Of a DNA stretch of 64,000 nt, positions 5,289 to 59,801 are shown piece by piece. The notes below the pieces were generated by a model that was given only the letters and a program-made list of their open reading frames with translations, did no database searches and was not told the origin of the DNA. Both the position numbers and the translations under genes were made by a program. The stretch comes from Desulfurococcales archaeon. Lineage in GTDB: Archaea > Thermoproteota > Thermoprotei_A > Sulfolobales > WAQK01. The stretch spans positions 543-64,542 of the forward strand of contig JALWQH010000023.1 in assembly GCA_027083135.1 (NCBI GenBank), written 5' to 3'. How positions within the stretch are numbered: the first letter of the stretch is position 1; every line of letters begins with the position of its first letter.

Positions 5289-5705
5289 CTAACGCTTAGC
5301 CTCTTGAACTACTAGCGGTATGAACCATGTCTGCACCACACCCTGTATCCGTCTAATGTTTCTCAGCAAGGTCCGAACCTCCCTCCACCTAGCCTCTAAC
5401 ACAGCTATATTGACACACAAGCCATCGCTAAGCATTTGATGGTAGAAGGATTTTATGAGGGCTTGGTGGAGGTGAATAGCATCTATCACCTTCCTATCCG
5501 CAGAGGGCCTAGCCTCATGATCCGTAAGCACAATCACTAGGCTATCAAATGGTTCTCCCCCAAGCTCCTCTGGAAACCTCGATGAAATATAGTCTCTAAG
5601 CGCCTGCCTTATAAACTCGGATCTACCAGTATACCCGTATTTCCCAGCATACTCGTCTATCCTCTCCAATAAAACTTTGGGCAGGGATACACTGATAATA
5701 GGCAT
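5289..5705 (-). CDS. NikR-like ribbon-helix-helix metal-responsive regulator
   Basis: IISVSLP...GYTGRSEFIRQALR RHH plus C-terminal His/Cys domain; divergent from a metal ATPase. Confidence 0.85.
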   Translation of the reverse strand: MPIISVSLPKVLLERIDEYAGKYGYTGRSEFIRQALRDYISSRFPEELGGEPFDSLVIVLTDHEARPSADRKVIDAIHLHQALIKSFYHQMLSDGLCVNIAVLEARWREVRTLLRNIRRIQGVVQTWFIPLVVQEAKR

Positions 5706-5795
5706 GTTTAAACCACCATATATTATGAGGCTGGAGGAATCCTATTAATCCTTATATAATAATTATTTTCTATTTTACCAACAAATTTTATTATA

Positions 5796-7650: not shown

Positions 7651-9681
7651 TTATGCTTTCTTAACCCGCACTGTTATTGAATTGTAGGTTGAGCCTCCGC
7701 CTATCTTCTGGGTGATGGGGGGTGCCAACGTGTTGAGAGGCTTACCGTTGAGGCCTGTGAGCAGTTTGGGTGCCCATAATACTCCTGGAGGAACCTTATC
7801 TGTTATTAATGCCTGTACAACTACTTCGCCCTGCTCATTGTAGAGGACAACCCTGTCACCGCTTCTTACCCCCAGTCTTGCTGCGTCGTCAGGGTTTACA
7901 TGGACTACTGGGGGTATAGGGCCGTAAACCTCTCTGAACTGCGTGTGAGTATAGTTTGGGTGGGAGCTGTTCAACAGTATGAAGCCCTGGGCTTCGGGGA
8001 GAGGAGGTATGCTGGGCAGGGGATCTAAGCCTAGGCTGCTAGCCCTAGTGGAGTAGAACTCTATTCTACCTGTAGGTGTCTGATACTTGTTTTTCTGCCT
8101 AGCCTTAAGCCGCAGTGTTTTCCCTGCAAGCAGATCGCTGAAGGATCCGTTCATCAAGGCGTTCTCCAGGCTTTTCTCCACGGCTCTCCACGGATCCTCA
8201 TATACCCATTCCTCCCCGACGCCTATGAGTTCTGCAAGCCTTCTTGAAACCCAGAGTTCGCTTCTACTCTCACCTAGAGGCTCTACTACACGGTGGGAGA
8301 GCCTAATATAGCCGTGGCTATACGAGACAACTAGGTCATCTTTCTCGAGGAATGTGGGTGCTGGTAGCACGATGTCCGCGTAGGCTGTTGTCTCATTCCA
8401 ATGGGTCTCATGAACCACTACGAACACATCTCTCCTCGCCAGCCCTCTTCTAAGCAGATCCTGTGCCGGCAGGGTGGCTGCAGGATTTGTGCCGTAAATA
8501 TATATGAACTTGAACTCCCCGCGGGCTACGTGTTCCGCTAATGCAACCTGGCTCACCACGCGGGGCTTCCTGGCCGACAGCTTCTCCCCTGTAAGATAGC
8601 CTAGATCAATGATCCAGGCCGAACTGTTACTATAGTAGAAGCCTCTATGAAGGCCTAGCAGGGCTGGCAGCAGCGCCACTGCCCTCACAGTCTCCGCGCC
8701 GCTAACTGTCTTCTGAGCTCCGAAGCCTATCATAGTGGTGCTGGGCTTATTCTCACCATAGGCTTCTGCAAGGCTCTCGAGAAGCCCTGGCCTAACACCT
8801 GTAGCCTCCTCAACTCTCCTCGGAGTCCATTCCAAAGCCCTCTCCTTATACTTCTCATACCCATAGCTCCACTTCTCCAGGAAGCCTTCATCCACGTAGC
8901 CGCGGGTTATGAGTATGCGTGCGACACCATAGGCTAGGGCAGCATCGCTGCCTGGCTTAGGGGCAACCCATATGTCAGCCAGACCTGCAGTTTCACTCCT
9001 CCTAGGATCAACCACTGCTATTAGTGCCCCCCTCATCCTAGCATCCAGGCTCAGACTCCACAGGTGAGGAGCACTAATAGCGGCATTGAATCCCCAGAAC
9101 ACTATGAGCCTCACGTTGGGCAGCTCTTCGGGCATAACCCCGTAGGAGAGGCCATAGTGGAGGCGTAGTGCAGCATGCCCTGAGGCGCTGCAGACAGCAT
9201 AATCGGTTCTCGATGCTCCCAGCGCGCTCCACAGTCTGAGGGGTAAATACTGTGTGAGGAGGCCCATGTCCCCCGAATACTCTAGGTGGAGCACAGCGCC
9301 TGAGCCATGCCTCTTTAAAACCTCGGCCAGCTTTTCCGCCGTGATCCTTAGAGCCTCATCCCAGCCTACCCTCCTCAGCCTCCCCCCAGGCTTACCTCCA
9401 ACCCGCAGGTATGGGTGGAGAATCCTCCCCCTAAGCATCCTCACATGATCCATTACTCCGCGGGGACATAGGAACCCCCTGGTAACAGGGTTCCTAGAGT
9501 CTCCTCTAACTCCGGCTACCCGTCCCTCCTCAACATCAGCAAGCATGAAGCACGTATCATAACAGTCCCTGGGACACACGGCTGCTACATGCATACCTCT
9601 GGCACCAGGCATAACTCTTGGTTGGAGGGATGAATACACCCGGTTATAAGAATAGCATCTCCCAGTAGATCCTGCAGGCAA
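7651..9681 (-). CDS. Molybdopterin-dependent oxidoreductase (true start probably near 9594-9612)
   Basis: CPRDCYDTC...LCPRG Fe-S motif, ADIVLPA, C-terminal dinucleotide-binding domain. Confidence 0.9.
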   Translation of the reverse strand: MPAGSTGRCYSYNRVYSSLQPRVMPGARGMHVAAVCPRDCYDTCFMLADVEEGRVAGVRGDSRNPVTRGFLCPRGVMDHVRMLRGRILHPYLRVGGKPGGRLRRVGWDEALRITAEKLAEVLKRHGSGAVLHLEYSGDMGLLTQYLPLRLWSALGASRTDYAVCSASGHAALRLHYGLSYGVMPEELPNVRLIVFWGFNAAISAPHLWSLSLDARMRGALIAVVDPRRSETAGLADIWVAPKPGSDAALAYGVARILITRGYVDEGFLEKWSYGYEKYKERALEWTPRRVEEATGVRPGLLESLAEAYGENKPSTTMIGFGAQKTVSGAETVRAVALLPALLGLHRGFYYSNSSAWIIDLGYLTGEKLSARKPRVVSQVALAEHVARGEFKFIYIYGTNPAATLPAQDLLRRGLARRDVFVVVHETHWNETTAYADIVLPAPTFLEKDDLVVSYSHGYIRLSHRVVEPLGESRSELWVSRRLAELIGVGEEWVYEDPWRAVEKSLENALMNGSFSDLLAGKTLRLKARQKNKYQTPTGRIEFYSTRASSLGLDPLPSIPPLPEAQGFILLNSSHPNYTHTQFREVYGPIPPVVHVNPDDAARLGVRSGDRVVLYNEQGEVVVQALITDKVPPGVLWAPKLLTGLNGKPLNTLAPPITQKIGGGSTYNSITVRVKKA

Positions 9682-25596: not shown

Positions 25597-26007
25597 CTAT
25601 TTCTTCACCCATAGTCTTTTCACTGCAGGTATTTTGTCGAACTCTCTATCCTCAGTAACTATTGCGGTGATACCATTATTGGCCATAGCTCCTAGGTGGA
25701 GGGCGTCTGAGGGCTTAAGATTATATTTCGCTAGGAGTTTTGCCGCCTGCCTGTATTCCTCTTCACCTAGGGCAATTATAGATATGTAGGGGAGGACATT
25801 TGATTCTATGAACTCCATTGAGACACCATATGGAATATTGTATTTTCTCCTAGAGACATAGATCAGCTCATCGAGGACGAGGACATCAGTATAAGATTTA
25901 TGCTTCGCCAAGACTTCTAAGTAGAAGTTCTCATAGGGGATCCTGTTCTCAGAATCTGCCATGGTGTTGAGGTATATGAGAAGCGGTGCATCTATGAATA
26001 CCTTCAT
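25597..26007 (-). CDS. vapC: VapC PIN-domain toxin
   Basis: VFIDA, VLDEL, PSDALH, TEDREFD motifs. Confidence 0.92.
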   Translation of the reverse strand: MKVFIDAPLLIYLNTMADSENRIPYENFYLEVLAKHKSYTDVLVLDELIYVSRRKYNIPYGVSMEFIESNVLPYISIIALGEEEYRQAAKLLAKYNLKPSDALHLGAMANNGITAIVTEDREFDKIPAVKRLWVKK

Positions 26008-26273
26008 TACTCAAACTCCTCCTCAAGATAGGTTTCTGCTAGCTCGCCTGGTTTAGGCTCCCTCCTACCCTGTATTCTCTTAATCACCTCAACATGTCTT
26101 CTCAGAGACTCCCTAAGCTTCTCAGCATCTACCTTTCTCCTAGCAGGCTTAAGTACAATTCCATCCCTGATTTCCACAATAACCTCATCACCCTCATCAA
26201 TACCGACAACCTCACGGATAGCCTTCGGCAATATTATGTAGCCCTTCCTACCAACCCTCAACTTAAGAGTCAA
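26007..26273 (-). CDS. vapB: AbrB/MazE-type VapB antitoxin
   Basis: RVGRKGYIILPKAIRE...GDEV; coupled to vapC; CCAGGTT/AACCTGG inverted repeat upstream. Confidence 0.9.
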   Translation of the reverse strand: MTLKLRVGRKGYIILPKAIREVVGIDEGDEVIVEIRDGIVLKPARRKVDAEKLRESLRRHVEVIKRIQGRREPKPGELAETYLEEEFE

Positions 26274-26554
26274 ACCAGGTTCACCTAAAGTATAACCTGG
26301 CTAAACCGATTATTAAGCTTCCCTAAGACACTAGTTTAAGTGAATGAACACACTATATCTAGCATCCGATGCCATAGGGAAGATCACTGCCTCACTAGGA
26401 ATTAGCCTGTCAGGGCTGAATAAAAGAACCATGAATTCTACTAAGATTCATGAAACCAAATATTATTATGAAGGAAAAATGTAGGAATGCATCGATTAGA
26501 AGCCATTCTTGGCAGGGATAACGTTTACAGGGAATATGCTGCTCCTCGCTCTTT

Positions 26555-27052
26555 TTATTGTGCTATAGTTTTCCTCCACTCCTCATATTCTTTAGGCGAT
26601 ACTACTTGCAGCTCGTTTATCATGGTTGTATATCCCTCCTCTCCCATTCTCTCCAGTATTCCACCTAGGTTTCCGCTAACCTTATACCAGTCGTCAAGGT
26701 CATTTGTTATTATTATAGGTATGTCGTTCAGGAGTATTAGTGAGGCGTGTATTGAGTCATACTTAATGTTCACTACTTCGTTTATTATGGCTGCTAGTCT
26801 TATGACATCCTCATCTATGTTCAGTAATGTTATTCCCAGTGATAGATAATCCTCTGTAGCCCTCCTAGCAACATGGGGGCTTATCTTTGAGAGGGAGCCG
26901 AGGAGCTCTAAAGCCACTAGGATTGAACCATGGGCTTCATAGACTCCCCTATCAACATCCTTTAGAATCTCGGCACACAGCTCTCCATACACTGGATGAT
27001 GTATTATAGCGTAGACATAAATGTTTGTGTCAATATATGCTTTAATTCTCAT
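26555..27052 (-). CDS. vapC: VapC PIN-domain toxin (ORF is open to 27103; start placed at MRIKAYIDTN)
   Basis: YIDTNIY, LEL, YDSIHA, TNDLDD motifs. Confidence 0.88.
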   Translation of the reverse strand: MRIKAYIDTNIYVYAIIHHPVYGELCAEILKDVDRGVYEAHGSILVALELLGSLSKISPHVARRATEDYLSLGITLLNIDEDVIRLAAIINEVVNIKYDSIHASLILLNDIPIIITNDLDDWYKVSGNLGGILERMGEEGYTTMINELQVVSPKEYEEWRKTIAQ

Positions 27053-27290
27053 TCCATGATTCCTCAACAAGTTTAACAGCATCAATGCTGATAGGTTCAC
27101 CAACTAGGTTGAGCATATCATCAACAGGATTCCTCGTACGAGGCACTACGGGTTCCAGGATCACCTTCCCATCCTTAACCTTAACTCTCAGGAGATCACC
27201 TATACGGATGCCTAGTTTCTCCCTAACCTCTTTAGGCAGTGTTACCTGGTGTTTCCGCGTAACCTTCACCAAAGCACGCATAATTATCAC
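27042..27290 (-). CDS. vapB: AbrB/MazE-type VapB antitoxin
   Basis: KVTRKHQVTLPKEVREKLGIRIGD. Confidence 0.92.
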   Translation of the reverse strand: MIIMRALVKVTRKHQVTLPKEVREKLGIRIGDLLRVKVKDGKVILEPVVPRTRNPVDDMLNLVGEPISIDAVKLVEESWNEN

Positions 27291-27453
27291 AAGTACTACG
27301 TACTACACAGCACCTAAAACCTTTACGTTTCACCTGGAAGGCTTCTCATCCACCTGCAACCTATAGGGGCACCACGCCTCTTCGGATATCTTACTCTATA
27401 AGTGACTGCCAATGAAGCATTATCCTCGTGTAGAAACATTCTCATCGAAAACA

Positions 27454-27467
27454 TCAGCACTCAAGAC
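27454..27467 (+). repeat. attL core TCAGCACTCAAGAC
   Basis: Exact copy at 59744-59757; 72 bp upstream of the integrase; inner arm GGGATGTAGAA at 27481-27491. Confidence 0.85.
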
Positions 27468-27539
27468 TCTCATCACAGCGGGGATGTAGAACCTCACTTT
27501 CATCTAGGTCTCCCCCCATTATATATTCTCTGAGGATCG

Positions 27540-28661
27540 ATGGGGGAGGGCGTGTACGACTATAGGGAGTCGGAGTACTATAAGAGGCTTCCCCGGGACA
27601 TTAGGGAGCTACTGGACGACTTCTACTCCTGGATGCTGGGGAGCATGAGGGAGACGACTGCAGGGAGGTTTGCGTGGGATGTGGCCAGGATCCTAGTGGA
27701 GGAGGCCTTCAACCCCCTCGACCTAGACTTGGCTAAGGCCAGGAGGGTGGTGGCAAGGGTCTCGGGTATGAGGCCCGGCACGAGGAGATGGTACGTGTCC
27801 CTCATGAGGAGGCTCGCCGCCTACCTCTACGAGATACACGGCTCGGAGAAGGCAAAGGAAATACTCGAGAAGCTCAAGTCCCCGAGGGTCAGGCTTCCCC
27901 CACCCGAAACCCTCACACCCGAGGAGGCCGAGAGGCTGCTGGAGGAGGCCAGAACCCTCAAGAACAAAGCCCTGATAGCCGTGCTCCTAGAGGGAGGCTT
28001 GAGGATAAGCGAGGCCCTCAGCCTCAGAATAGGGGACGTGGAGTTCGACGAGTATGGAGCCAAGCTCTACGTAAGGCAGAGCAAAACAGAGGCTAGGCCA
28101 GTAAGGATAATCAAGTACACCCACATCCTCCGGGCATGGCTTCAAAGCCACCCCCAGAGAAACAACCCCCAAGCATGGCTATTCCCCAAGGCAACAAACC
28201 CTGATAAACACATGACCCCCCAAACCGCAAACAACAATATCAAAAGAATAGCAAGGAGGGCAGGAATAAAGAAGAACGTACACCCCCACATCCTAAGACA
28301 CACCAGGGCAACCATGCTAGCCACAAGGCTAACAGACAGAGAAATGATGATGGTATTCGGCTGGAAAACAGTAGAAATGGTGAGGAGATACACACACCTA
28401 ACCATGAGAGACGTGGAAACCAGCCTCCTCAAAAAGGTCTACGGAATAGACAAGGACGATGACAGGACACCCCTAACCACCAAGACCTGCCCTAGATGCG
28501 GAGCCCAAAACCCAGCCCAAGCAAAATTCTGCTGGAACTGCGGATACCCATTCGAACAAGTACAAATCCAAATAATCAAGAAGGAAACAGAGACCGAGCA
28601 ACTAGCAAGAAAAATAGCAGAGCTATTGAAGCAGAATCCAGAGATACTAGGACAGCTGTGA
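27540..28661 (+). CDS. int: Tyrosine integrase with C-terminal Zn ribbon (SNJ2-like architecture)
   Basis: GLRISE (R), SKT (K), HILRH (HxxR), FGW, RRYTH (Y); CPRC...CWNC; gene intact, not split. Confidence 0.95.
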
Positions 28662-43523: not shown

Positions 43524-44042
43524 TTAGCCTGCTAGTCTTAGGAGGAGCTCCTCGGCAGCACGCTTCTGAGTGTAGCTTAGAATGTAGTCCAGCTTCTTAT
43601 GCCCCGTGAGCTTAGCTATCAGTTGGGCTGAAACCCCTCTCTCCGCTAGTTGCGAGATGAAAGCATACCTCAAGGCATGCGTGTTAAAGCCCAGGGCTTT
43701 CCTCGTCCACGACTTTATCCTGGAGACCACCGTGTCTAAGCCGTGGACACGCAGTCCAGCAACAGCGAGGCGCTCACCCCTCCCAAGCTCCCTCGGAACA
43801 ACAACCAGCCTCTCATAGGGATCCCGCCTCTTCCGGACCCTCACCCTCAGCTTCCTCCTACCCGTCTCAGCCCACTTGAAGGCGGCCTCCACGGCCTCGC
43901 TTATCCTAAGCCCATTGGAGAGCTGTATCAACAATATACTGATATATGCACGAGCCACAGGCCTGGCATCCCTAAGCCTACCAACCAAATCCCTCCTAAC
44001 AACATTGTAGTCCAACCCCTTATCCCACGCATACAAACCCAT
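43524..44042 (-). CDS. Mini tyrosine recombinase (catalytic domain only)
   Basis: NGLRISEA, THALRY, TGH, LSYTQ catalytic residues in 172 aa. Confidence 0.88.
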   Translation of the reverse strand: MGLYAWDKGLDYNVVRRDLVGRLRDARPVARAYISILLIQLSNGLRISEAVEAAFKWAETGRRKLRVRVRKRRDPYERLVVVPRELGRGERLAVAGLRVHGLDTVVSRIKSWTRKALGFNTHALRYAFISQLAERGVSAQLIAKLTGHKKLDYILSYTQKRAAEELLLRLAG

Positions 44043-52703: not shown

Positions 52704-53888
52704 CTATATCGGTAGCTGTTCATGTATTGATGTAAGTATTCTGCTGGCCTCTTCGTCTGATTCTCCGCTCATCATGTCTATTGCTTCTATACGTCTCCTC
52801 CCCTTCTCCGCGATTTTACAGGCATAGTATGGGTAATATATTAGCCTGTAATCCTTGACTACTCCCTCCCAGAACACTTTAACCATGTTTTCAAGGCCGC
52901 TTAGATTTAGCTTGGGAGTTAAGATTGCTTCTTTACTGCTTTGCAGAGGCTTTAGAGGCAGCTGAGGCGCCAGTGTTCTCAGGGCTGCTGGATCAGGGAT
53001 CCTCTGTTTCAGAACATATATTCCTCGCCCACCCTGTGCAACCAGCCCTTTGATGACGAGGCCTTGAACTATTCTCCTAGCCTTGGATGTAGAGCATCCT
53101 AGAAATGCTGCTAGGCCTGAAGTAGTTATCTGGGGGCGTACTAGGAAGAGTTTAAGAGCCTTGGCTTCATCCTCAGTAAGCCTTGAGATACGCAGCACCC
53201 TCTCAACCCGTTTTCCAGTATAGTTGCAGAGGCTTCCATCCATAGCATCTACAAGTATTGCTGAATTAACTATTAGCTCCTTAGTCGTCCTCCTAAGCAC
53301 CCCCCTCGAGACATATATTTTTCCTTCAATATGGGCCTCATAGAATGGGTAAAATATAACGGCGCATTCCTCTATAGCTCCCTTCATACCGAGGAAACCC
53401 TTAAGCTTTCTTTCAACCACTAGCCTGCATTGTCCAGCCCCTATTCTCGGCTCCACGTAGAAGGCATTCTGGGGAGCCTTTGCCTCCTCTAATGGTATTT
53501 CGCCTAATAGTTCTCTCAGCTTCGCCTGATCCCATAGGTCTATGTTGTAGCCCGAGGCTGTTGAGACCGCGTCAGGCGTGAAGTAGGATGTTGTGACAAG
53601 TATTCCCCTATCTACTCCTAGGTCGTTCACCTCGCTTATGAGCTTCATAACTATATCCTTGTTGACAGGCTTATCGTAGGCCTTGCATTCAACTATTATC
53701 CTGGAGGTGTGGAGAGGAGCCTTATACTCAGCGTAGACATCTATCTGGTGCTTGACCCCTGAGCGCCCCACCAGCAAGGCATTATGCTTAGCATAGTACC
53801 CCTTAGCCTCGAAGAGCCTAGTAATAAGCTTCTCAAGCTCAACACCCTTCTCATAAGCCTTCTCATAAGCGTTCTCCAACACCCTCAC
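52704..53888 (-). CDS. Mrr-like restriction endonuclease fused to a wHTH-containing C-terminal region
   Basis: ELEKLITRLFEAKGY, HQIDV, IVECKAY, GILVTTSYFTPDA. Confidence 0.85.
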   Translation of the reverse strand: MRVLENAYEKAYEKGVELEKLITRLFEAKGYYAKHNALLVGRSGVKHQIDVYAEYKAPLHTSRIIVECKAYDKPVNKDIVMKLISEVNDLGVDRGILVTTSYFTPDAVSTASGYNIDLWDQAKLRELLGEIPLEEAKAPQNAFYVEPRIGAGQCRLVVERKLKGFLGMKGAIEECAVIFYPFYEAHIEGKIYVSRGVLRRTTKELIVNSAILVDAMDGSLCNYTGKRVERVLRISRLTEDEAKALKLFLVRPQITTSGLAAFLGCSTSKARRIVQGLVIKGLVAQGGRGIYVLKQRIPDPAALRTLAPQLPLKPLQSSKEAILTPKLNLSGLENMVKVFWEGVVKDYRLIYYPYYACKIAEKGRRRIEAIDMMSGESDEEASRILTSIHEQLPI

Positions 53889-54039
53889 TATTCCAAATAT
53901 AAAACACGAAGGAGAATTTAAAGGAATAACATCTCCAGAACACTACACAACGTTGATCCCAACTAATCGATAACAAAAACACCTCAAACCAAGCATTTAT
54001 GCTGAAACAAGCCTCTATAATTCAATGAAGGTGAAATAG

Positions 54040-54531
54040 GTGGCATTAAATCTCCTATACTTTGCACAGGTGGTGTTCGAAGGAGCAATGGTAATAGGCA
54101 CCTTCCTGATGGCTATCATGACAGGCCTTATGGCATTAGAAACCATGAAGGATAGAAGACTAAGATTAATAGAGAAGAGGTTGGACGAGTTCTATATGCC
54201 GCTCATAGAGCTCTTCTCCACGCCCGCCTTGAAAGATCAGAGATACGTTGAAAGGGTGAATAGAATAGTTATTGGTAAGCGGTATCTCAGCGGGCCTAGG
54301 ACTGCTAGGGTTTTACCTTCAACCTTCTCCCCTAAATTCCAGGTTGGTGGCCAAGAATACAAGCTGGGGGAAGAGGCTGGGACCTGGCGGAGGGTGGCTG
54401 ATGTTATCTGGGAGGAGGCGAAGAGCTATATCGAGCAATATTACCGCTTAGGAGGCATAAGGGACTACTCTCTGCCCAGGGAGAAGCCTAAGTGGCTGTT
54501 CTCAGAAAGTACTGGCTTTAAGGGAGCTTAA
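54040..54531 (+). CDS. N-terminally anchored hypothetical protein
   Basis: One TM followed by IEKRLDEFYMPL; GGTGA RBS. Confidence 0.7.
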   Translation: MALNLLYFAQVVFEGAMVIGTFLMAIMTGLMALETMKDRRLRLIEKRLDEFYMPLIELFSTPALKDQRYVERVNRIVIGKRYLSGPRTARVLPSTFSPKFQVGGQEYKLGEEAGTWRRVADVIWEEAKSYIEQYYRLGGIRDYSLPREKPKWLFSESTGFKGA

Positions 54532-54687
54532 GACTACTCGCATGAAACCCGGAGTTGCTCAGCAAGGATGTGGAATGGCCTGCTGAGGAAGGTGAAGTCT
54601 GCCTAAGAGGGCATTAGATGCTTTGCGGTGATTAATAGCCATGAATAGCTGTCGAAATAATAGTAAACTATGCAAGGCTTACGTTTT

Positions 54688-55545
54688 TTAACTGTTTATT
54701 TTGGGAAGATTCTTCAGCAGGTTTTCTAGTTCTTTCCATGTGAGTATTATTGCTGGGTAGGGTGTTTTTCCTTCTCTTTCCTTGGCTATTACTCGGCGGA
54801 TTTCTTCTAGCCTTGTCTTCTCGTGTGGTGGGACCAGGTATACTGGGATGAACTTTACGTGGGGGAGGCATTGGGCTATGTCGTCGTACTCTGAGCTGAA
54901 CTCCTTGGCTCGTTTCACCAGGTCTCTGCGTACGCCTGTCCTGACCTGTAGGGCTATTTCTACTCGGCGTGGATCAGGGGGTATGGCGGCGTCTACTTCG
55001 ATCTCCTTGCCTCCGCAGTGTATCTTTATCTTGCCGCAGGGGTGGCCGTGCTTCTCGGCGAGCTCTCTGACAGCTTCTTCTATGCGGGCCCGGTAGTGGC
55101 GTTTCTGGTGTTCCTCCCAGTTCTTGTAGAACTTATATATCACTGTTTCCAGGTGGAGGGGGTGTTTCAGGCTGCTTGACACGAGTTCTGCGAACCTGTA
55201 GGCTGTCCTCGTCTTCCTCCTGAAGGCCTCAGGCCTCCTCAAAGTGTAGACGTCGTCTATTCCTGCTAGGCGTTCAAGCTCCCTGACGCTGAAGCCGCAT
55301 ATCATGACGAAGAAGGGTATCATGACGCCGGGATCCCTCGCCATGAGCCCGTATATGTCTCTAGGGGAAGCCTTGTCGAATCTTATGAGCCCTGTCTCCT
55401 CCTCGTAGAGCCTTGATTCCACCAGTATTCCGCCGATCCTCCTAGCCATGTCGTCGAGGTCGGAGTAGAGGTGGGGGAGCTCCTCCTTATTTGGCCTCGG
55501 AATCCTGGCCAGGATGTCCTCCACCAGTCCTGCAGGCCTGCTCAT
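54688..55545 (-). CDS. Putative type II restriction endonuclease
   Basis: Coupled (ATGA overlap) to the MTase; EVDAAIP...IALQVR variant of PD-(D/E)XK. Confidence 0.65.
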   Translation of the reverse strand: MSRPAGLVEDILARIPRPNKEELPHLYSDLDDMARRIGGILVESRLYEEETGLIRFDKASPRDIYGLMARDPGVMIPFFVMICGFSVRELERLAGIDDVYTLRRPEAFRRKTRTAYRFAELVSSSLKHPLHLETVIYKFYKNWEEHQKRHYRARIEEAVRELAEKHGHPCGKIKIHCGGKEIEVDAAIPPDPRRVEIALQVRTGVRRDLVKRAKEFSSEYDDIAQCLPHVKFIPVYLVPPHEKTRLEEIRRVIAKEREGKTPYPAIILTWKELENLLKNLPKINS

Positions 55546-56978
55546 AGTAGTTGCCTCAGGCTAAGTGTTTTCACGCCCTTTGAATAAAGGCTTTCAGGGA
55601 TGGGCAGGTTTTTGAAGAGCGTGGCCTGTAGTCTGAGGTACCCGTTGGCCGCCCTCTGGGCATGCGCCTCGATCCACATCTCCACTTCTCTGCTGCTAAG
55701 GTATTCTAGGAGGCCTGGTATGATGGAGGGGTTGCGGGGGACAAGGTAGTAGACGTTGTGTCTGGGTATTATTCGTCCCTCAGGGTCCCACCAGAACCTG
55801 GGCTCCTTCTCCACGTCTCTCCAAAGGATCTTGGGCTTAGCCAGGGTCTTCATAGGCGGGTTTTCGTGGAAAGCATACCATTTCTTCCCAACGATCCTCA
55901 CGGCCCTCCTCTTCTCGAGCTCCCCTCTATGCCTCGCAAGGTATTCTAGGAGGGGCTTGGCCTCCTCTTCGCCTAGGAGCCGCCCCTCCCTGTCATAGGG
56001 GACGAGCATGACGTGCTTTAGCTTGGAGTAGTCTATGGGTCCCCCTGCCTTGAAGCGTGCCAGCTCCTCCCCGCTCACCGTGGGCCAGGCGTAGGGCCTG
56101 AGCTCCTCGGGGAGCATATCCCTCCTAACCACGAAGATGTTGTCTCTCCCCGTGGCTACTCCTGCGCTTATCCTGACGCATATTTCCCTGAGCCTGTGCT
56201 TGTACTGTTTGAGCCTGGTTGGCTGCAAGCGGACCATGGCTTCACCCAGCCAGGGCGACCCGTCCCTGGGTAGATACACAGTGGTTCTGGAGCCGTCTCT
56301 GAGGATGAAGGTTGTAGGGCCTGGAGCCTCCTTGTCCACCACTGTTACCGCGGGGTAGGCTAGTATTTCTCCGAAAGCCTCCTCCTCAACCAGCTCCACC
56401 TCCACCACATGGTGCTGGGCTAATAGTCTCCGCAGGGCTCGGGCAGAGTGGACGTATAGGTATTTCTCAGGCGTTATGAAGACCAGTCTGCCCCCAGGAT
56501 TGAGGAGCCTGAGAGCCTTCTCGAAGAACAACATGTAGGTGTCGAACCTGCCTGTAGCCGTCCTGTAGAGCCGCTTATACTTCTCCCTGAGATCCATGGG
56601 CAGCCTCTCAATCGAAATGTAGGGCGGGTTGCCTACAACATAGTCGAAGGCTCCGAGACCCTCTAGGAGGAGGAAGTCTCCCTGCACAATGGTCACATTG
56701 GACAGGTCCCTGTACCTCGCCCTACAGGCCCTAGCCATACCCGCATCTATCTCCACACCCACGATCCTAGGAGGCCTCACCCCCCTCCTCTCACACCACC
56801 GGAGAACACCGTCAATGAAGGCTCCAAGCCCGCAGCCTGGATCAAGAACCCTGTCCCCAGGCCTAGGAGCCTTCCCAGCAAACAGCTTCCCAACCATACG
56901 GTCAACTAGCCTCGGCGGCGTGAAAACCACACCCTCAGCAGCCCTGATCCTCTGCCTCCCCACAGCCATGCACCACAA
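55542..56978 (-). CDS. N6-adenine DNA methyltransferase, gamma class (TaqI/Eco57I-like)
   Basis: VFTPP, VLDPGCGLGAF (motif I), GNPPY (motif IV), C-terminal target recognition domain. Confidence 0.93.
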   Translation of the reverse strand: MWCMAVGRQRIRAAEGVVFTPPRLVDRMVGKLFAGKAPRPGDRVLDPGCGLGAFIDGVLRWCERRGVRPPRIVGVEIDAGMARACRARYRDLSNVTIVQGDFLLLEGLGAFDYVVGNPPYISIERLPMDLREKYKRLYRTATGRFDTYMLFFEKALRLLNPGGRLVFITPEKYLYVHSARALRRLLAQHHVVEVELVEEEAFGEILAYPAVTVVDKEAPGPTTFILRDGSRTTVYLPRDGSPWLGEAMVRLQPTRLKQYKHRLREICVRISAGVATGRDNIFVVRRDMLPEELRPYAWPTVSGEELARFKAGGPIDYSKLKHVMLVPYDREGRLLGEEEAKPLLEYLARHRGELEKRRAVRIVGKKWYAFHENPPMKTLAKPKILWRDVEKEPRFWWDPEGRIIPRHNVYYLVPRNPSIIPGLLEYLSSREVEMWIEAHAQRAANGYLRLQATLFKNLPIPESLYSKGVKTLSLRQLL

Positions 56979-59551: not shown

Positions 59552-59740
59552 TGAAGACTTAGGCTTCCAATAAATCATGATTCACAGGCAAAGATAGTAG
59601 CCTGCTTGCTACACACATGCCTTACCCATACTACGTATTTTCGCTTATCCATCGCCTGTAGAACCTGCCGACTTTCACAATCAAATCCTTTCACGTTAAG
59701 ACTATCCTATCCATGGAAGGAAAAGTTTCTACATCCCAGG

Positions 59741-59801
59741 GTGTCAGCACTCAAGACCCTCTTCATCTCCCAGGGGATCAGCACTGCCGAGCTCATCACA
59801 C
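59741..59801 (-). ncRNA. Box C/D guide sRNA containing the attR core
   Basis: gtg-TGATGA(C)-gctcggcagtg-CTGA(D')-tcccctggg-AGATGAA(C')-gagggtcttgagtg-CTGA(D)-cac; TTTAAA at 59829-59834 upstream. Confidence 0.88.
59744..59757 (+). repeat. attR core TCAGCACTCAAGAC
   Basis: Exact copy of 27454-27467; inner arm TTCTACATCCC at 59727-59737. Confidence 0.85.

Follow-up and report, generated by a model that had tools for sequence, protein, structure and literature searches.

In the available text of a review of archaeal tyrosine recombinases (PMC8371274), the attachment (att) sites of these enzymes are transfer RNA (tRNA) genes, intergenic sites and protein-coding genes only, and the term "sRNA" does not occur. 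Here, we investigated the integration site of a provirus in a 64,000-nucleotide (nt) stretch of contig JALWQH010000023.1 (assembly GCA_027083135.1) from a heat-loving Desulfurococcales archaeon, which we call the window. The provirus resembles Aeropyrum pernix spindle-shaped virus 1 (APSV1) and appears to end inside a small RNA (sRNA) gene of the C/D box type, the Leu guide, whose predicted target is tRNA-Leu(CAA). It probably lies there because its integrase belongs to a group that targets the tails of C/D box sRNA genes, with conserved guides preferred, and not because the site mimics a tRNA.

APSV1 itself (NC_028268) shares 14 genes with the provirus, in the same order and at 30–60% identity. 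Its integrase is of the SSV type and holds the 3' half of tRNA-Val(TAC), so its integration module differs from that of the provirus, which has another integrase and another site. As far as the available portions of PMC8371274 and PMC10919331 go, the type II archaeal integrases (pNOB8-type, SNJ2-type and those of pleomorphic viruses) are like the window integrase in having a whole gene beside one att site, a short core and an element by which an RNA gene regains its 3' end. They differ in that the window target is the tail of a C/D box sRNA gene, and in that the window integrase has HxxR where pNOB8 has YxxR. The att sites at anticodon loops described for SSV1 and pTN3-like elements (PMC8371274, available text) have, as the window does, the 7-nt loop sequence within the shared core. 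Unlike them, the window lacks the stem dyad, restores no tRNA, has a shifted predicted overlap and carries an unsplit integrase gene.

Bacterial prophages at non-coding RNA (ncRNA) genes also use a small RNA gene as attB; however, those RNAs are not modification guides, and the integrases belong to other families. The bacterial small RNA ryeB is reportedly one such prophage site. In the available part of a provirus survey, ncRNA makes up 13.5% of the RNA targets of bacterial prophages (PMC13626063).

A Pyrococcus C/D box sRNA for C34 of tRNA-Leu(CAA) is known from the available parts of PMC7994747 and PMC7668247; in the latter, the C34 site is predicted and is not among the detected positions of that text. 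Pyrobaculum has wobble guides as well, such as sR45 for C34 of tRNA-Val (PMC6009581, available text). The window gene shares with these guides the box layout and a 12-nt D guide, and with the Pyrococcus guide the predicted target, wobble C34 of tRNA-Leu(CAA). It differs in that its tail is a provirus att site; integration is not mentioned for the others in the text available.

A C/D box sRNA gene at the end of a provirus

The minus strand at 59744–59799 is a complete C/D box sRNA gene with the following parts:

59744–59799, minus strand: intact C/D box sRNA gene, at the provirus end distal to the integrase (from the sequence)
59793–59799, minus strand: C box, GTGATGA (from the sequence)
59782–59792, minus strand: D' guide, 11 nt (CTCGG kept in 23 of the 31 loci listed)
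59778–59781, minus strand: D' box (from the sequence)
59760–59766, minus strand: C' box, ATGAAGA (from the sequence)
59748–59759, minus strand: D guide, 12 nt (pairing with tRNA-Leu(CAA) in 10 of 10 relatives)
59744–59747, minus strand: D box (from the sequence)

The order along the minus strand is C, D' guide, D', linker, C', D guide, D. Boxes C, D', C' and D with guides of 10–13 nt are those of an archaeal C/D box sRNA, and the guide and boxes are conserved in the same layout in the sRNA loci of relatives (31 loci listed). Among 351 genomes searched in the class, 137 contain the exact 14-nt tail of the gene, and none contains a reversed control. Rfam gave no match anywhere in the window, nor in eight related loci.

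The features of the provirus that bear on its integration are:

27454–59757, no strand: APSV1-like provirus, 32.3 kb (14 of 45 open reading frames match APSV1)
59744–59757, no strand: att core of 14 base pairs (bp) at the sRNA end, made up of box D and ten guide bases (repeat)
27454–27467, no strand: att core at the integrase end, the displaced sRNA tail, 14 bp (repeat)
59727–59737, plus strand: inverted-repeat arm, 11 bp, virus side of the right att (11/11, centre D+7)
27481–27491, plus strand: partner inverted-repeat arm, 11 bp, virus side of the left att (11/11)
59751–59757, plus strand: predicted overlap of 7 bp, shifted by one base against the copy of the anticodon loop (based on dyad centre and identity edge)
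27540–28661, plus strand: tyrosine integrase, 373 amino acids, intact gene, C-terminal zinc ribbon (from the sequence and homologues)

The APSV1 matches are collinear, with the ATPase at 45% identity, and this core gene block places the provirus genome among those of the APSV1-like spindle-shaped viruses. Its integrase gene is whole, and residues R155, K182, H250, R253, W275 and Y284 are invariant among 17 homologues. An SSV-type integrase gene holds the att site and is split by integration, which is not the case here. Nor is the enzyme a XerA: it scores 110 bits against NF040815, where XerA exceeds 220, and branches separately from the XerA rows. As in the pNOB8 type, the gene is intact after integration; the pNOB8-type motif R...YxxR...Y (PMC8371274, available text) is absent, and H250xxR253 is found instead. 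The integrases of GacPV1 and ThalV2 are 33–34% identical to that of the window.

When both ends of the provirus are joined, the two arms form an 11/11 inverted repeat centred on D+7. Together with the identity edge at D+10, this centre leads us to predict the overlap at 59751–59757. The integrase would exchange strands there, inside the D guide. The rest of the guide, together with box D, would come from the virus and keep the RNA whole, just as tRNA-targeting elements restore the tRNA 3' end. The arms are probably extra integrase-binding sites.

The core could also be a chance repeat, with the provirus ending elsewhere. It is one of 39 exact repeats of at least 14 nt in the window, and contigs of four sequencing runs contained no empty or circular form (a second sample covered host-side DNA only, from 59993). 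We find this explanation barely credible, since the repeat ends exactly at box D and lies 72 nt upstream of the integrase gene, the 11/11 inverted repeat flanks the joined ends, the virus gene block is enclosed, and the same 14-bp core recurs beside a related integrase in another order (G258).

The predicted target of the D guide

Genes for tRNA-Leu with anticodons CAG, GAG, TAG and TAA are present in the host assembly, and ARAGORN, BLAST and a motif scan found no CAA gene there. We took the host tRNA-Leu(CAA) gene as unassembled and therefore tested the D-guide pairing in relatives. Both loci were examined in 20 genomes; 11 had the CAA locus, and 10 of these also had a parsed guide. In all 10, the D guide pairs over 10–11 consecutive nt with tRNA-Leu(CAA), with a Watson-Crick pair at C34, where a guide-target pair should have at least 9–10 nt and a Watson-Crick pair at D+5. 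We predict that the D guide directs 2'-O-methylation of C34 of tRNA-Leu(CAA).

A preliminary description of the window had already proposed wobble C34 as the target and, by the D+5 rule, the C of CAA as the methylated base. D+5 does fall on that C, at 59752, and the plus-strand anticodon-loop heptamer CTCAAGA (59750–59756) lies inside the att repeat, in line with the description. The complementarity it reported is real, but its D guide of 14 nt takes in two bases of box C', and the guide is 12 nt long. The tRNA arm that it gave, GGGCTCAAGACCCT, is inexact; relatives show GG(G/A)CTCAAGA(C/T)CCG.

The guide also pairs with tRNA-Leu(UAA), but with a G.U pair at the target position in 8 of 8 parsed cases. 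Such a pair at the target position usually blocks methylation. In the UAA pre-tRNA of the host, the 5' end of an intron prolongs the guide pairing (G000:C54:22695-22798, L062). An intron is present in 7 of the 30 tRNA-Leu(YAA) loci listed.

The host 23S ribosomal RNA (rRNA) gene is not assembled and the host 16S ends near model position 496, and rRNA of relatives was used instead. In four relatives' 23S loci and the partial host 16S, the D guide pairs over at most 7–8 Watson-Crick nt, versus 10–11 nt for tRNA-Leu(CAA) in relatives; the preliminary description had called for such a comparison with rRNA.

That description called the D' target uncertain, as we do, and likened it to a tRNA D-arm. 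CTCGG in the D' guide is complementary to the D stem of tRNA-Leu, and a 16S site of one relative offers an alternative pairing of 12 nt, including two G.U pairs. We somewhat favour the D' guide as an anchor on the same tRNA-Leu. Inspected by eye, D' guides vary by family and still pair with tRNA-Leu (L008; L007, L010–L012), one family over 9 nt of the D stem and another over 8 nt at the variable/T-stem junction.

Related integrases at the tails of other C/D box sRNA genes

Relatives of the integrase were searched with the protein and two alignments in genomes of the order, class and phylum (251, 351, 351 and 401 genomes) and in metagenome contigs, and the DNA upstream of the best-matching relatives was examined for att sites. 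Fifteen integrases, that of the window included, are tied to C/D box sRNA tails: five at wobble guides, eight at 23S guides and two at other non-wobble guides (G049, G646). This count leaves out seven relatives with no assigned site (G029, G305, G320, G226, G354, G681, L080). The Leu-C34 guide is used in the window, G258, G041 and G019, and a Val-C34 guide in G165, where the arms match at 11/11. The 23S guides of G315 and G132 pair over 10 Watson-Crick nt in 4/4 23S sequences, those of G641a, G606a, G606b, G502 and G621b over 11–12 Watson-Crick nt in 4/4, and that of G641c over 10 nt with one G.U.

The related integrase sits either beside a displaced fragment or directly after the intact sRNA gene. 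In four cases a single contig carries both ends as direct repeats: the window, G258 (9.4 kb), G606:C17 (17.6 kb) and G502:C7 (8.7 kb). The last two elements, delimited at both ends, lie at a dual guide that is purely for 23S rRNA, and their inverted repeats of 11/11 and 10/11 are centred on D+8. In 7 of 8 pairs, box D marks the exact end of the shared identity; the exception is G181, where an empty and a filled allele have a common flank. As a control, a C/D box gene lies upstream in 0 of 17 XerA-like loci.

C/D guide genes are thus likely a general viral landing site and not a tRNA look-alike, because the integrase relatives sit at the tails of other guides, many of them for rRNA. The anticodon-loop heptamer would be in the att core because every wobble guide gene carries such a copy. 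The Leu guide itself is likely favoured because its tail is unchanged across the class, and the same holds for the 23S guide tail used by other members.

The metagenome element L247 was at first placed at a 12-bp inverted copy of another sRNA tail (9438–9449, upstream of its integrase). We rejected this site, which had no inverted-repeat support, and reassigned the element to the 23S dual guide, because the nearer guide fragment fits better. That sRNA (5665–5713), of the C/D box type, has a D guide for 23S rRNA, while its D' guide is one for U34 of tRNA-Ala(UGC). Viral contigs gave no locus with a single protein query and 25 loci with an alignment query, none of them informative on att; 120 matches of the 14-mer in viral contigs had no integrase homologue nearby.

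Integrase trees and alternative explanations

Some members of the integrase family use tRNA genes. G159 and G116, close to the Val-guide integrase, have 16–19 bp in common with the 3' ends of a tRNA-Tyr and a tRNA-His-like gene, and G500 has a tRNA-3'-end-like fragment, as judged by eye. More distant relatives follow intact tRNAs (14 of at least 43 phylum loci listed, plus two others). The 16 upstream tRNAs called by ARAGORN include Thr, Met, Ser, Phe, Glu and Gly. The records of GacPV1 and ThalV2 (L350 1–30; L351 1–30) start, upstream of the integrases, with sequence like the tRNA 3'-end core of G159. Our integrase trees, all quick searches with support by the Shimodaira–Hasegawa-like approximate likelihood ratio test (SH-aLRT) only, require two or more changes of target. 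In this family the target does change between guide genes and tRNA genes, by way of tRNA 3' ends.

Changes of target to tRNA-Tyr and tRNA-His-like 3' ends, nested within the tree, would fit an integrase that recognises no C/D features but a conserved short sequence ending a small transcription unit, and that drifts independently onto stable RNA ends. This explanation departs from targeting of C/D tails solely in what the integrase recognises. Both gene orientations occur, and the arms differ among lineages, as such drift would have it. However, of the 18 resolved sites that do not belong to the intact-tRNA clade, 15 are C/D tails, in each case at the D guide and box D, and by eye the arms often look like box C' plus the start of the guide. 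We consider drift of this kind unlikely, with a real chance of being correct.

Several observations weigh against an integrase group that targets C/D tails. The sRNA-linked integrases form no clean clade, with two users of tRNA 3' ends nested among them (approximately unbiased (AU) test, p 1.5e-12). The position of the window integrase is unstable: it falls with the sRNA set in tree 1 (support 98) and, weakly, in tree 2 (66), and with the tRNA set in tree 3 (96), which used a simpler model and in which the alternative placement is not rejected (p 0.225). A single end is known for 6 of the 15 integrases (G041, G049, G315, G132, G646, G641c), G641a and G606b show a fragment without an intact sRNA beside it, and the 15-bp ends in G165 are inverted and 170 kb apart. 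Two further points speak for tRNA mimicry. Of 9 rebuilt attP sites, 5 have their dyad centre at D+6, opposite tRNA position 35. Wobble guides serve 3 of 8 lineages, or 2 of 7 if the window is left out, above their share of sRNA families; the 2 of 7 lineages against about 5 of 110 Pyrobaculum families in the available text of PMC6009581 give a rough binomial value of 0.04, with conservation as a confounder.

The preliminary description had taken attB for a mimic of a tRNA, with the anticodon-loop copy as the kind of overlap found in tRNA-targeting integration, so that an integrase could switch from tRNA-Leu to the guide gene. In the form we weighed, an integrase of the tRNA-Leu(CAA) loop moved to the guide gene through 8–9 shared bp, either in the window lineage or at the origin of the group. 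The loop heptamer does lie in the core, on the strand of the integrase as intact tRNAs do for tRNA-linked relatives, but the overlap predicted from the dyad centre is shifted by one base. Use of the Leu guide appears on two separate branches, and one tree places the window integrase next to tRNA users. A single clade of wobble-guide users is rejected (AU p 0.012; 30 rows, LG+G4). The eight relatives at 23S guides use the same kind of site where there is no tRNA-like sequence. The stem dyad is absent as well, as the DNA flanks of the loop pair at 2 of 6 positions, against 5 of 5 in the tRNA stem of G001. Leu accounts for 0 of the 16 upstream tRNAs of relatives, and a lack of tRNA-Leu users among sister integrases, here within this sample, is what the description itself had named as refuting its proposal. 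The centre is D+7 in the window and D+8 in two others, and D+6 occurs also at one 23S guide; moreover, under the D+5 rule, position 35 falls close to the centre of every 12-nt guide. Where the tree shows a switch, it involves a tRNA 3' end that lacks the anticodon (G159, G116). We regard a move from the tRNA loop as distinctly unlikely, and the mimicry proposal is mostly unsupported.

A broader version is more doubtful still. C/D targeting may have begun when an anticodon-loop integrase jumped to a wobble guide and then spread in nearly the same register; such integrases, which would cut inside the D guide, would now shuffle guide plus box-D modules between hosts and yield the composite and transposed sRNAs of Thermoproteota. 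Mimicry can now be put to a direct test that needs a single enzyme and two substrates.

The Leu guide tail as an integration hot spot

The Leu guide is a class-wide hot spot for integration. Among the 137 genomes that hold the 14-mer, 11 have at least two cores. Two of the multi-core cases are contig overlaps (G007, G306) and were dropped, and seven hold a fragment in addition to an intact sRNA. An empty allele and a filled one occur in G181, two fragments in G330 and two full genes in G029. Units of 0.9–3 kb that lack an integrase lie between cores in G001, G019 and G293, and in a tandem array at a 23S guide in G258. Such units may represent satellites or tandem arrays. Around the site, we found no synteny with G001.

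Integrase-less units were also seen at L293 7495–10571, L308 1466–4486, L317 430–1303 and L327 7044–11253, and some of them carry arms like those of full elements and small toxin-antitoxin-like genes. In several assemblies (G005:C34, G007:C4/C30, G029:C73, G256:C106, G306:C47/C71), contigs end at box D of the Leu guide gene or no more than about 35 nt from it, as expected of a variable insertion site; we did not count these breaks against chance. Another complete copy of the Leu guide gene, whose flanks are nearly identical, occurs at L234 12600–12720 (G258:C5) and L240 (G029:C94). The two genomes belong to different orders, and the copy is either mobile or a binning error.

The guide RNA is of a known kind, and its use as an att site by a phylum-wide integrase group would be new. 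We found no C/D sRNA att site in the literature, where supplements may list such sites unlabelled. "Integra" has no mention in the available text of PMC6009581, nor do "sRNA" and "snoRNA" in that of the provirus surveys PMC13626063 and PMC13573593, and the available parts of PMC3218864 and PMC10919331 give tRNA sites only. Since annotations seldom include C/D box sRNA genes, insertions in them would be recorded as intergenic, and island finders based on tRNAs would miss them. Their tails would form a new class of att site, with cores of 12–15 bp and a testable layout. A 2021 review calls the route of archaeal guide RNA mobility still to be discovered (PMC7994747, available text); integration at C/D tails would offer a concrete route, and one to the composite sRNAs of Pyrobaculum described in the available part of PMC6009581. 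Since the Leu guide tail is identical across so many genomes of the class, it may also serve as a broad-range integration site for vectors.

Other features of the provirus and its surroundings

Two further features lie around the left att:

27470–27476, minus strand: additional perfect C box that precedes box D by 12 nt, on the virus side of the left att (from the sequence)
27437–27446, minus strand: arm-like sequence, as in other elements at the site (resembles the flanks in G001, G039 and G041)

By eye, no extra C box was seen at that place in the other rebuilt attP sites listed. With it, the left att reads as a half-size C/D RNA (27454–27476, minus strand) that could pair over 9 nt with tRNA-Leu(CAA), as does attP within the 11-bp inverted repeat. 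We considered and rejected such an RNA, as the fold is no better than that of shuffled sequences and the RNA is not conserved. No partner was found for the arm-like sequence at 27437–27446; this 10-mer and two PIN-domain genes (25597–27446) are possibly the scar of an older insertion.

Elsewhere in the host, duplicated 3' parts of tRNA-Leu(TAG), tRNA-Glu, tRNA-Pro and a Val-like tRNA mark other integrated elements (G000:C34:48940-48996; C44 near 23717; C52 near 49857 and 107154). Inside the provirus, a second tyrosine recombinase of 172 amino acids (phrog_9208) is encoded at 43524–44042, with four copies of a 21–23 bp palindrome around it (40286, 43332, 43732, 48178). The provirus also carries, at 52704–56978, a cargo of an Mrr-like nuclease, an adenine methyltransferase and a neighbouring gene of unknown function.
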